Positions 35,371 to 39,272 of a DNA stretch of 64,000 nucleotides are shown one piece after another. The translations under genes were made by a program, and so were the position numbers. Positions within the stretch are counted from its first letter, which is position 1. Every line of letters starts with the position of its first letter. The notes beneath the pieces were generated by a model. That model made no database searches, was not told where the DNA came from, and worked only from the letters and a program-made list of their open reading frames with translations. Location of the stretch: NCBI GenBank assembly GCA_944320495.1, contig CALUHR010000013.1, forward strand, positions 290,687-354,686, given 5' to 3'. This stretch comes from Candidatus Methanomethylophilaceae archaeon (GTDB taxonomy: Archaea; Thermoplasmatota; Thermoplasmata; Methanomassiliicoccales; Methanomethylophilaceae).

Positions 35371-37698
35371 ATGACCTGCGGGATGAGCAGGCGCGACGCG
35401 CCGTTCGACCTGTGCGACATCTCCATCCGCGACGCGTCCGACGAGGACCTTGTGAAGCTCTCGGCGGACATGAGCCTGGGGCTCTCCGCCGACGAGATGC
35501 GCACGATCAGGGATTATTTCGCGAAGGAGGGCAGGGACCCCACCGACGTGGAGCTTCAGGCCCTCGGCCAGGCGTGGAGCGAGCACTGCTGCTACAAGAG
35601 CTCCAAGCCCATCCTGAAGGAGTTCGTCTTCGGTCTGGACAACGACCGGGTGCTCTCCAAGGGCGACGCCGGCGTGATGATCTTCGACGACGACTACGGA
35701 TACGCCCTGAGGATCGAGAGCCACAACCACCCGTCCGCCGTGGAGCCCTACGGAGGTGCGGCCACGGGGATCGGCGGCATCCTGAGGGACGTCGTCTGCA
35801 TGGGCGCCCAGCCCATAGGCCTCGCCGATCCCCTGTGCTTCGGCCCGATTGACCGTGAGGTCGACCTCCCGCCCGGAGTCAAGAGCCCCCGCTATCTGAT
35901 GAGCGGGGTCGTCTCCGGTATCCGCGACTACGGGAACAGGGTCGGGATACCCACCATCACGGGCGGATTCTTCTTCGACGAGAAGTACACCGGCAACTGC
36001 CTGGTCAACGTCGCATGCCTCGGCATCGTCGCGAGAGAAGACCTCGCGAGGAACTACGCCGGAGGCCCCGGGGAGGTCATGATCCTCATCGGCGGGAAGA
36101 CCGGCAGGGACGGTATCCACGGGGTCAACTTCGCCTCCGCGGACCTCACCGCCACATCCGACGAGGACTCCCGCGGCGCCGTCCAGCTCGGCGACCCGAT
36201 CATGAAGGAGCCAGTCATGCACGCCTGCTTCGAGGTCAACGCCCGCCATCTGATCACGGGCATGAAGGACCTCGGCGGAGGCGGTCTCAGCTGCGTCGTG
36301 GGCGAGATGGCCCTGGACGCCGGCTGCGGCGCCGACGTGGACCTGGAGAAGGTCCCGCTCAAGGAGCCCGGTCTCGCCCCGTGGGAGATCTGGGTGTCGG
36401 AGTCGCAGGAGCGCATGATGTGCACCTGCAAGCCCGAGAACGTCGACGAGGTGCTCGCGGTATTCGACATGTGGGACGTGCCCGCCACCCCCATCGCCAG
36501 GACCACCGTCGAGAAGCGCACCCGCCTGTTCTGGAACGGCGAGAAGATCTTCGACATGGACCTCGAGTTCCTCACCGGCGGGCCGGTCTACAACCGCCCG
36601 TACGAGCTCCCCACCCCGTCCTCCAAGGACGGCGAGGTCTTCCCTGAGATCGAGGACGACTGCGAGGCGATCCTCGCCATGCTCTCCGATCCCAACGTGG
36701 CCTCCAAGGAGTGGGCCATCAGGCAGTATGACCACGAGGTCCGCGCATCCACCGTCATCCATCCGATGGTCGGCCCCCTGAACGAGACCGGACCCGGGGA
36801 CGCCAGCGTCCTCAGGCCCGTGCCCGGGAGGATGAAGGGGCTCGCCGCGGCGATAGGATGCAACCCGTGGTTCGCCGAGGCCGACCCGTACAGGGGAGGC
36901 ATGGCCGCCATCGACGAGGCCTGCAGGAACATCGTCGCCGTAGGCGCCAGGCCCGACGCGTTCACCGACTGCCTCAACTTCGGCAACCCGGAGAAGCCCG
37001 AGAGGCTCGGGGAGTTCCGCGAGGCCGTCAGGGGTCTGGGGGAGGCCGCACGCGACCTCGGTCTGCCGATCCCCTCCGGGAACGTGAGCCTGTACAACGA
37101 GGCCCCCGGGGGACACCACATCCTGCCCACGCCCATGATCCTGGGCTGCGGGCTGATCGACGACGTCAGGAAGTGCATCACGGCCGACTTCAAGAGGCTC
37201 GGAAGCATCATCATGGTCGTCGGCGAGACGAGGGACGAGATGGGTGGATCTCTGCTGTTCAGGAAGTTCGGCGGGGAGAAGGGGGAGGTCCCCGAGACCG
37301 ACATCCCGAGGCTCAAGCGCCTGATGGACGAGCTCCTCCAGGCGATGGACGAGGGGCTGGTCATCAGCTGCCACGACTGCTCGGACGGCGGCATCGCCGT
37401 GGCCGTCGCGGAGATGTGCATCTCCGGTCACATCGGCGCGGAGATCGACACCTCCGCCATGCCCGGGGAGGACTTCAGGGTGAAGCTCTACTCCGAGAGC
37501 TGCAGCAGGTGGATCGTCGAGGTCGACGGTGCGGACGTCAGCAGGTTCATGCAGATCATGAACGGCGACGCCTTCCCGCTCGGCATAACCAAGGGCGACA
37601 GGCTCCTGATCAAGGACAACGGCACCGAGGTGCCGCTGGACGAGATGATCAAGGCGTGGAGCGAGCCCGTCTGGAACATCATGGGGGGAAAGGCATGA
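35371..37698 (+). CDS. purL: FGAM synthase subunit PurL
   Basis: WSEHCCYKSS, ESHNHPS, DLGGGGL, SESQERM, NFGNPE. Confidence 0.97.
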   Translation: MTCGMSRRDAPFDLCDISIRDASDEDLVKLSADMSLGLSADEMRTIRDYFAKEGRDPTDVELQALGQAWSEHCCYKSSKPILKEFVFGLDNDRVLSKGDAGVMIFDDDYGYALRIESHNHPSAVEPYGGAATGIGGILRDVVCMGAQPIGLADPLCFGPIDREVDLPPGVKSPRYLMSGVVSGIRDYGNRVGIPTITGGFFFDEKYTGNCLVNVACLGIVAREDLARNYAGGPGEVMILIGGKTGRDGIHGVNFASADLTATSDEDSRGAVQLGDPIMKEPVMHACFEVNARHLITGMKDLGGGGLSCVVGEMALDAGCGADVDLEKVPLKEPGLAPWEIWVSESQERMMCTCKPENVDEVLAVFDMWDVPATPIARTTVEKRTRLFWNGEKIFDMDLEFLTGGPVYNRPYELPTPSSKDGEVFPEIEDDCEAILAMLSDPNVASKEWAIRQYDHEVRASTVIHPMVGPLNETGPGDASVLRPVPGRMKGLAAAIGCNPWFAEADPYRGGMAAIDEACRNIVAVGARPDAFTDCLNFGNPEKPERLGEFREAVRGLGEAARDLGLPIPSGNVSLYNEAPGGHHILPTPMILGCGLIDDVRKCITADFKRLGSIIMVVGETRDEMGGSLLFRKFGGEKGEVPETDIPRLKRLMDELLQAMDEGLVISCHDCSDGGIAVAVAEMCISGHIGAEIDTSAMPGEDFRVKLYSESCSRWIVEVDGADVSRFMQIMNGDAFPLGITKGDRLLIKDNGTEVPLDEMIKAWSEPVWNIMGGKA

Positions 37699-38513
37699 GG
37701 CCCGAGGATGTCAGGGTGTGCGTCATGCGCATCGAGGGAACCAACTGCGAGGACGAGATGGCCAGGGCGTTCAACGCCGTCGGCGCGGACGCCGAGAAGG
37801 TCCATCTCAAGCAGCTCATCGGCCAGGCGCCCTCCGGGCTCCGCAGGAGCCTCGAGGACTACGACGTGCTGGCCTTCCCCGGCGGATTCTCCGCGGGGGA
37901 CTACGTCCGTGCGGGTGCCCTGTTCGCCGCGAGGATCAAGGCCTCCCTCGGACCGCAGATCAAGGCCTTCGTCGAGGCCGAGAAGCCCGTGATCGGGATC
38001 TGCAACGGATTCCAGATCCTCGTCGAGCTGGGGCTGCTCCCCGCCTTCGAGGGCACGATGACAGACTGCCCCACCGCCGCGCTGTACACCAACGACTCGG
38101 GAAGGTTCGAGTGCAGGCCGACGGTCCTGAGGAACGACAACAACGGCAAGTGCCTCTTCACCTCCGAGATCCCGAAGAGGAAGACGCTCACGATTCCGTC
38201 CGCTCACGCGGAGGGGAAGCTCATGAGCAGCGACCCCGACTTCGTCCAGAGGCTGGAGGACAACGACCAGGTCGTCTTCAGGTACGTCCGCCCCGACGGG
38301 TCCGACGCCGACTATCCGTGGAACCCCAACGGGTCCCCTTCGGACATCGCCGGCATCTGCAACCCGGCAGGCAACGTCCTGGGCATGATGCCCCATCCGG
38401 AGCGTGTGATCGACAGGTTCACGCACGCCGATTGGACCAGGGGCTACGTGACCGAGGAAGGTGACGGGAAGTGCATCTTCCAGTCGGTCATGAAGCATCT
38501 CGAGAGGATGTGA
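37695..38513 (+). CDS. purQ: FGAM synthase subunit PurQ
   Basis: EGTNCE, GGFSAGD, GICNGFQ, MPHPER. Confidence 0.96.
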   Translation: MRPEDVRVCVMRIEGTNCEDEMARAFNAVGADAEKVHLKQLIGQAPSGLRRSLEDYDVLAFPGGFSAGDYVRAGALFAARIKASLGPQIKAFVEAEKPVIGICNGFQILVELGLLPAFEGTMTDCPTAALYTNDSGRFECRPTVLRNDNNGKCLFTSEIPKRKTLTIPSAHAEGKLMSSDPDFVQRLEDNDQVVFRYVRPDGSDADYPWNPNGSPSDIAGICNPAGNVLGMMPHPERVIDRFTHADWTRGYVTEEGDGKCIFQSVMKHLERM

Positions 38514-38517
38514 GAAC

Positions 38518-38572
38518 GGGCGGGGCACCACCCCGCCCACAACGCCCCATGCGGATCCCGGAGCGGGTCCGC
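38518..38572. terminator. Two GC hairpins between convergent purQ and ribK
   Basis: GGGCGGGG/CCCCGCCC (38518-38538) and GCGGATCC/GGGTCCGC (38551-38572). Confidence 0.5.
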
Positions 38573-38615
38573 GGGGTCTTCTATGATGTTCGGACTTCAG
38601 AACGGTCCTTCGCGA

Positions 38616-39272
38616 TCGGACGTTGACCTTCACGTCCACCCTGTCGCCGTCCTCGAGGCTGAGGGTCCTGCGGAGGTGGTACTGGCAGATGATCTCGATG
38701 ATGTCCGCGTAGTGGGACCTCTCGGGGACCACGATGGCGCAGTCGATGTTGCGTATCCTCGCCTTGTAGGCGACGACGTTGCCGAAGCTGCGGCCGTTGT
38801 CCGTGAATCCGTTAATCGGCACCCCGGCCACGCTCTTGATGACGTCGAGCTTCCCGACGTCGTCCGGGTCCACATGGATGTTCAGGGTGCCCTCGAAGGG
38901 CTCGAACCCGAGTTTGGACTTGAACTGATCCAGATAGCCGGGCTGGCAGATGTAGTAGCCGCCCTCGCCCATCCCCGACTGCACCGCGCCGTGGATGGTG
39001 ATGTGGTCCGTGAGCTCGAAGATCCTGCGGTACTCGTTGTACTCCTTGCGCAGGTCGTCTATCCCCTTCTGGGTCAGCTTGATGCGCTGCCTGCGGGCGC
39101 CCAGGTCCCTGACGATGTACTTCTCCTCCAGGAGCTCCAGAATCCTCTTGGAGGCAGATTGCTGGCTCATCTCGAGCGCTTCGCCGAGCTCCCTCGAGGA
39201 GATGGCGATGTAATCGTCCATGGCTCCAAGCAGGGCGAGCTTCCTGAGTGCGAAGGAGTACTTCTCGTCCAT
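38616..39272 (-). CDS. ribK: CTP-dependent riboflavin kinase with N-terminal wHTH (218 aa)
   Basis: SQQSASKR HTH, SGMGEGGYY, PFEGTLN, PERSHY, LEDGDRV; CGA at 38616-38618 (standard code runs to 37488). Confidence 0.92.

Follow-up and report, generated by a model that had tools for sequence, protein, structure and literature searches.

CGA as a candidate termination codon of ribK and of other genes in gut archaea of the family Methanomethylophilaceae

To our knowledge, changes of a sense codon into a stop have so far been accepted only for organelles, and codons with a dual meaning come from ciliates and trypanosomatids. Here we analysed a stretch of 64,000 nucleotides (nt) from Candidatus Methanomethylophilaceae archaeon (GCA_944320495.1, contig CALUHR010000013.1, positions 290,687 to 354,686 of the forward strand), hereafter the window, in which the gene of an archaeal riboflavin kinase, ribK, appears to end at an in-frame arginine codon, CGA, instead of a standard stop.

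Related situations have been described in several groups of organisms. In two Njordarchaeales assemblies CGA was absent from recognisable domains, and a role as stop was speculated upon (bioRxiv 10.64898/2026.04.02.715157). In Mycoplasma capricolum the codon CGG was reported as unassigned (Oba et al. 1991, cited in PMC8629427). Furthermore, altered anticodon stems of tRNAs play a part in the case of Blastocrithidia (PMC13092985). No literature report of CGA stops in Methanomethylophilaceae or Methanoprimaticola was found in a search that lay mostly outside subscription journals, and a CGA terminator was found described nowhere for a free-living organism.

The end of ribK

The ribK part of the window comprises the following features:

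38619..39272, minus strand: ribK coding region, 218 codons, winged helix-turn-helix (wHTH) and CTP-dependent riboflavin kinase (PF01982, 3CTA alignment, orthologues aligned over 1-218)
38616..38618, minus strand: in-frame CGA, codon 219, proposed ribK terminator (sequence and orthologue alignment)
38610..38612, minus strand: second in-frame CGA, two codons further, in CGA TCG CGA (sequence)
37488..38615, minus strand: rest of the open reading frame (ORF) of translation table 11, read as non-coding in frame and lying opposite purQ and the last part of purL (coding potential, sister-genome indels)

The gene starts with the ATG at 39272-39270 and runs on the minus strand to the codons GTC AAC GTC (...DGDRVDVKVNV), the last of which occupies 38621-38619 and is followed by CGA TCG CGA. 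Under translation table 11, the first standard stop is reached only at 37488, which results in an ORF of 605 amino acids from the TTG at 39305, or 594 from the ATG. Past the CGA, this frame adds about 376-387 codons (peptide RSRRTVLKSEHH...) and spans the 102-nt ribK/purQ spacer, the whole of purQ in antisense and the 3' end of purL. The preliminary description of the window had ended a 218-residue ribK (...DVKVNV) at the CGA of 38616-38618 and had drawn the 605-residue standard ORF across the spacer hairpins, purQ and the end of purL; both statements agree with our reading of the sequence. It should be added that long antisense ORFs are common in this genome of 62% G+C, so that the long ribK ORF by itself is unremarkable; what is beyond chance, judging from the aligned orthologues, is the placement of CGA exactly at the orthologous stop position.

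The coding-potential segment of the ribK ORF (contig C13 328174-330027), delimited by codon statistics, stops at the CGA. The latter forms the palindrome CGATCG with the next codon TCG (window 38611-38618). No standard stop overlaps the ribK CGA in either shifted frame, the nearest ones being 6 and 12 codons off, and a frameshift into a stop, as proposed for human mitochondrial AGA/AGG (-1 shift), was for this reason rejected.

The protein encoded upstream of the CGA is complete. PF01982 matched ribK in its full length (profile 1-121/121, E=5.4e-42, 143 bits with a cut-off of 25), and the match ended at residue 227 of the 605-residue ORF, one before the last ribK residue (V229 in this numbering, V218 from the ATG). 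Residues 2-216 were aligned with residues 6-220 of the PDB 3CTA chain (E=2e-49); the N-terminal winged helix matched Pfam MarR_2 weakly, with 21.9 bits, under the cut-off of 27. The ends of 3CTA and MJ0056 lie no more than about 10 residues from that of ribK.

The alignment of orthologues, named in the preliminary description as a check, gave a consistent picture. Codon 219 is a standard stop in 21 of the 23 other congeners, and the remaining two stop at codons 220-221; among the congener set, CGA at this codon was present only in the genome of the window (G000) and its sister G018. Among 79 species-level orthologues from across the family (69-100% identity), 76 terminate at codon 219, in concordance with the established view that the archaeal wHTH-riboflavin kinase ends after the LxDGDxV strand, as its solved relatives do. 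The terminators over all 79 loci were TGA (67), TAA (7), TAG (1) and CGA (4). The four CGA-ended loci, with identities of 100, 86, 77 and 76%, derive from assemblies of different projects; the swap therefore recurred and is no assembly quirk, and the alignment places the change from TGA to CGA at ribK codon 219 in at least four lineages. Some of the public bins with the archaeal ribK locus were titled as bacteria, i.e. Lachnospiraceae, Bacteroides ovatus, Ruminococcus, Prevotella, Dialister and others (L224, L233, L238, L240-L244, L282 and L284); these are probably mislabelled 'cleanbin' records.

Comparison of the two sisters separates the sequence before the CGA from that behind it. Within ribK, G000 and G018 differ by 20 substitutions over 654 nt, every one at a third codon position. 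Within 90 nt past the CGA, 1-nt and 2-nt indels occur, so that the read-through peptides of the two genomes are unrelated, and that of G018 stops after 57 codons. On this pattern of substitutions and indels, purifying selection on the ribK frame ceases at the CGA. The earlier interpretation that ribK stops at the CGA and does not continue antisense through purQ thus gains support from the stops of the orthologues, the loss of selection, the recurrence of the swap and the genome-wide alignments given below, and we consider with high confidence that the functional ribK product would end at V218.

CGA at gene ends across the genome and the clade

The G000 assembly (1.77 Mb, 14 contigs, 62% G+C, 91% complete) yielded 1,234 stop-to-stop ORFs on the basis of self-trained codon statistics. 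As comparator in tblastn searches we used the complete genome of a congener, G008 (1,664,211 bp, 53.5% G+C).

In strongly coding stretches of G000, the frequency of CGA was 0.10 per 1000 codons, next to 0.07 for TTA, 1.0 for CGG and 2.4 for CGT. These values come from bins of local coding score, which replaced a crude CGA rate of 4 per 1000 in stop-to-stop ORFs, inflated by 5' extensions and tails. The four window genes purL, purQ, ribK and PAN contain 109 Arg codons and no CGA, the 44 Arg codons of purL and the 19 of purQ included. Among the 99 ORFs in which the coding signal gave out 25 or more codons ahead of the standard stop, CGA was the very next codon in 40 cases (runner-up codon, 6), and control codons in this change-point test had no such excess at coding ends. 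A further statistic, which compared CGAs with coding sequence upstream and non-coding sequence downstream to CGAs in fully coding surroundings, was confounded, since CGA is frequent out of frame and positions past any coding boundary are consequently enriched in it; it was set aside for the change-point and orthologue tests.

The orthologue test covered 838 ORFs of G000 with a homologue in G008, and 153 of these (18%) had a late in-frame CGA. In the 685 ORFs without it, 50% of the standard stops coincided with the G008 stop, and 78% lay no more than 3 codons from it. In the 153 late-CGA ORFs, the first CGA coincided with the G008 stop in 63 and lay no more than 3 codons from it in 114 (75%), whereas their own standard stop was found within 3 codons of the G008 stop in only 15%. 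Where the tail was 10 codons or longer, the G008 stop was aligned with CGA in 74/98 and with the standard stop in 3/98. The G008 codon opposite CGA was TGA in 59 and TAA in 4 of the 63 exact cases, and individual alignments had the CGA opposite the G008 stop inside high-scoring segment pairs that continued through conserved DNA.

G008 itself has a late CGA in 28 of 1,348 ORFs, 10 of them at the coding end, and CGA is extremely rare in all sampled congeners, G008 included. Swaps between CGA and TGA in both directions were detected in samples of G018, G009, G010, G013 and G004. It should also be added that G013, Ca. Methanoprimaticola sp. MG2 (contig NZ_JBEQWH010000004), a member of the clade, showed a few CGA ends in the 120 kb sampled. 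The third-position bias in the comparison of G000 with G018 was 79% ahead of the CGA and dropped to 31% behind it (4 genes only), and 57 standard-stop controls behaved alike. As far as such comparisons of genomes can tell, CGA is very likely equivalent to TGA at gene ends in this clade.

The 116 validated CGA ends were characterised by U at position +4 in 57% (31% for TGA) and by a varied base at -1. Their commonest context was CGA-TCG (21/116). A second CGA followed within 5 codons in 24/116, at about chance level; a standard stop was the very next codon in 11/116, and CGA-TGA tandems numbered 9.

Several further observations relate to codon usage in these genomes. At C1:9080-10741 (minus strand, codon 317) and C13:191554-192375 (codon 130) of G000, two neighbouring genes in the same frame are parted only by CGA, and because no standard stop lies between them, table 11 fuses each pair into one ORF. 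At the Gly of a conserved VPGCPP motif, encoded by GGA in G000 (C13:27675-29702, codon 504), the opposite position on G008:C1 carries a CGA, which may reflect an error, a pseudogene or an oddity of CGA at this place. TAG ends 70 of the 1,234 ORFs of G000, and ARAGORN predicted tRNA-Pyl(CUA) in G008 and not in G000, the latter being 91% complete.

Sense CGA codons and competing explanations

Two conserved genes use CGA internally. The gene of the archaeal release factor aRF1 is located in G000 at C2:85936-87165 on the minus strand (locus L099:1087-2316), and its sole in-frame CGA encodes the conserved Arg78 (GCT CGA CTC). Although synonymous sites on either side vary, 21 of 22 congeners have CGA at codon 78; the residue is Arg in all 29 sequences, and in congeners this CGA always follows a T-ending rare codon (GCT or TCT). 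In 7 outgroup genomes the same codon is CGC, CGT, CGG or AGA, and CGA is scattered elsewhere in the gene. In the gene of ribosomal protein L18e (C13:191557-191910, minus strand; locus L130:558-911), codon 29 (Arg29) is CGA in 30/30 congeners. No other in-frame CGAs are common to G000 and G008 at conserved positions. Over about 70 nt past the L18e CGA, the rare codons GAA, AAT and AAA are almost invariant, which suggests a constraint at the nucleotide level. In samples of seven genomes, we surveyed how often late CGAs occur, together with the tRNA arm and the codons for Arg78 of aRF1 and Arg29 of L18e.

The anticodon arm of tRNA-Arg(UCG) is variable. In G000 it carries an A31-A39 mismatch and U32/C38; other congeners have C32/A38 with 31-39 also mismatched, and in G008 the near-universal U33 is replaced by C33, with a C-C mismatch in addition. 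The arm thus evolves fast, in a molecule that is otherwise conserved. Loss of this tRNA was rejected as the cause of CGA ends, the gene being present, also in G008 with its few CGA ends. G000 has one aRF1 gene (a single eRF1_2 match), and the idea of a further aRF1 paralogue dedicated to CGA was rejected on the strength of this only match in a 91%-complete genome. Within aRF1, the GTS-equivalent loop has Ser for an invariant Gly in G000 and G018 only (GRSTEL, compared with GRGTEL in 27 other sequences), and a genus-wide Q replaces Y/F beside a conserved Glu upstream of the NIKS motif. In the sequences compared, neither change tracks the CGA-end trait cleanly.

Some of these data weigh against CGA as a terminator. 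About 8-14 internal CGAs in coding context were counted in G000, conserved Arg codons included, and the conserved CGAs of aRF1 Arg78 and L18e Arg29 imply that the codon is readable as Arg at least there. The gene of tRNA-Arg(UCG) is intact (C13:413317-413390, locus L026) and also present in G008 and 11 other congeners, which sets the case apart from classic reassignments. The NIKS and YxCxxxF motifs of aRF1 are unchanged, and the Gly-to-Ser change of the GTS loop was discarded as a trait-tracking change, as congeners with the standard loop also have CGA ends. No context rule beyond the preference for U at +4 separates terminator CGAs from sense CGAs, and RNAalifold revealed neither conserved or covarying RNA structure nor compensatory pairs beside the sense CGAs of aRF1 and L18e. 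Moreover, the coding calls rest on a codon-statistics gene finder and tblastn and not on curated annotation. As read from these genomes, CGA is not an absolute stop.

The explanation we favour, and regard as probable, is that ribK encodes a normal protein of 218 residues and that CGA would terminate its synthesis via aRF1, in competition with a weak tRNA-Arg(UCG). It would apply to a clade of gut Methanomethylophilaceae (Methanoprimaticola/UBA71-type), in which CGA is nearly gone from coding sequence and takes the place of TGA at roughly every fifth gene end. Under G+C pressure, the T-to-C transition would turn TGA into CGA; the change is proposed to be tolerated because CGA terminates, and aRF1 to release the peptide there because tRNA-Arg(UCG) decodes the codon poorly. 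The tRNA itself would be kept because Arg78 of aRF1 and Arg29 of L18e need CGA to be read as arginine. As for the mechanism of ending, recognition by aRF1 is a proposition to which we give even chances. Tentatively, the codon may have a dual meaning, i.e. a default stop at about 18% of gene ends and arginine, via the weak tRNA, at Arg78 of aRF1 and Arg29 of L18e, with aRF1 throttling its own synthesis. On this reading, the CGA within the gene of aRF1 would serve as a feedback sensor: abundant aRF1 would end its own synthesis, a negative feedback of the prfB type, which we put forward only as a hypothesis.

Among the alternatives, CGA could be an effectively unassigned, 'hungry' codon, at which ribosomes would stall owing to a weak or scarce tRNA-Arg(UCG), and the nascent chain would be freed by rescue or drop-off (Pelota/ABCE1-type or peptidyl-tRNA hydrolysis) and not through recognition of CGA by aRF1; ribK would still end at V218. 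The extreme rarity of CGA in all sampled congeners, including G008 with few CGA ends, the aberrant tRNA arm (A31-A39 and U32/C38; C33 in G008) and the unchanged recognition motifs of aRF1 agree with it, and the unassigned CGG of Mycoplasma capricolum (cited in PMC8629427) gives it a precedent. Stalling and rescue at about 18% of genes would, however, be costly and slow, and conserved sense CGAs persist in highly expressed or essential genes, among them the release factor itself, which argues for regulated competition rather than a dead codon; besides, one eRF1-fold gene only was found in the 91%-complete assembly. We hold a hungry codon to be unlikely. Conversion of CGA to the standard stop UGA by C-to-U editing of mRNA is improbable. 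It would account for the retention of the tRNA and for aRF1 motifs that have not changed, and the opposite codon in G008, one transition away, is nearly always TGA (59/63); yet the sites lack a strict context (+4 U in 57%, -1 varied), the CGAs of aRF1 and L18e would need to escape, and we know of no C-to-U mRNA editing in archaea.

The two remaining explanations fit poorly with the recurrence of the swap, the genome-wide equivalence and the conserved internal CGAs. In a plain stop-loss, CGA would stand for Arg, and ribK would carry a C-terminal extension of about 15-30 residues up to the 3' end of the transcript (non-stop mRNA), or of the full 387. The existence of tRNA-Arg(UCG), the single, G+C-favoured transition between TGA and CGA and the abundance of long open antisense frames at 62% G+C are all compatible with this. 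Against it, the same swap has been fixed in at least four lineages at ribK and also at some 150 further gene ends, the tail lacks a coding signal and its frame is broken between sisters while ribK shows no first- or second-position change, and about 18% of the proteome would be burdened with junk tails of up to 400 residues; we judge it quite improbable. An assembly or base-calling artefact, with a true TGA misread, for example, at methylated CGATCG/TGATCG, seems extremely improbable to us. CGATCG, a palindrome typical of methylation sites, does surround 21 of the 116 validated ends, but most CGA ends lie outside it, the CGA at the ribK end is present in five assemblies from different projects and assemblers, and the same pattern recurs in sampled regions of five other congeners. 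An error of this kind could neither purge CGA from coding sequence nor conserve the CGAs of aRF1 and L18e across 21-30 genomes.

Neighbouring features, implications and related systems

The surroundings of ribK in the window contain the following features:

39295..39304, minus strand: putative TATA-like element, a T-rich stretch some 25 nt ahead of the ribK ATG (sequence)
38545..38576, minus strand: hairpin 1 of the convergent ribK/purQ spacer (minimum free energy and centroid fold)
38518..38538, minus strand: hairpin 2, with a 9-bp G+C stem and a 3-nt loop (fold)
37695..38513, plus strand: purQ, convergent with ribK, TGA at 38511-38513 (ORF and translation)
35371..37698, plus strand: purL, in ATGA overlap with purQ, its last ~210 nt under the ribK read-through frame (ORF)

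The spacer had been described before as holding two terminator-like hairpins at 38518-38572. Two hairpins were indeed folded (38576-38545 and 38538-38518), but their likeness to terminators found no support: no U-tract follows them, a scan for bacterial-type terminators gave 0 sites, and the spacer fold was not better than its shuffles (z = -0.9). Oligo-T is normally used in archaeal transcription termination. G+C inverted repeats just past the ribK TGA were also present in congener loci L017 and L019-L023, and G018 retains the stem of hairpin 2, although a 2-nt indel falls in the region of the loop. It is probable that the G+C hairpins, situated 45-100 nt past the ribK CGA, mark where the convergent transcripts of ribK and purQ end, or stabilise these 3' ends.

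If CGA does terminate translation here, a free-living prokaryote would have turned a sense codon of its chromosomal code into a stop, and this would be a natural case of codon capture in which the tRNA and a possible release-factor feedback are still present. In practical terms, annotation of these human and animal gut methanogens with table 11 would over-extend roughly one gene in five and produce fused or antisense-overlapping proteins, such as the 605-residue 'ribK'; over-extended gene models distort protein databases, pangenomes and metaproteomic searches.

As regards the protein, ribK resembles Ta1064 of Thermoplasma acidophilum (PDB 3CTA/5TRD) and the MJ0056 kinase domain, and it finishes at the same strand as 3CTA; the ribK protein itself is ordinary, and its terminator alone differs.

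With respect to the codon, the aRF1 gene resembles bacterial prfB (RF2), autoregulated through an in-frame UGA, in that it has early on, at a conserved place, an in-frame codon which appears to end translation in this clade and which aRF1 itself would read. The two differ in that prfB relies on a +1 frameshift with a Shine-Dalgarno stimulator, whereas the homology of aRF1 stays in frame across its CGA, for which plain read-through by tRNA-Arg(UCG) would be needed. The dual-meaning stops of ciliates and Blastocrithidia (PMC10089648, PMC12153298) also have one codon with two meanings, over which a tRNA and a release factor compete; there, eukaryotic stops gained sense, whereas here an archaeal sense codon would have gained a stop function, with sense use left at a handful of sites. 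In Mycoplasma capricolum, an Arg codon was likewise brought to near zero use by compositional pressure, at a codon-capture stage; there A+T pressure left CGG unused, whereas here, under G+C pressure, CGA would be reused at about 18% of gene ends.

The organelle codes (AGA/AGG in vertebrate mitochondria, table 2; TCA in Scenedesmus, table 22; TTA in Thraustochytrium, table 23) share with the present case a former sense codon that stands at gene ends and is purged from coding sequence. They belong to tiny genomes that have lost the cognate tRNA, in contrast to a free-living archaeon of about 1,700 genes that has retained its tRNA and two conserved sense uses. The Njordarchaeales belong to another phylum, with about 50% G+C, CGG reassigned to Trp, no tRNA(UCG) and no evidence from gene ends (bioRxiv 10.64898/2026.04.02.715157). 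In the methanogen clade, by contrast, CGG stays Arg, tRNA(UCG) is present, and the equivalence of CGA with TGA at gene ends has been measured.

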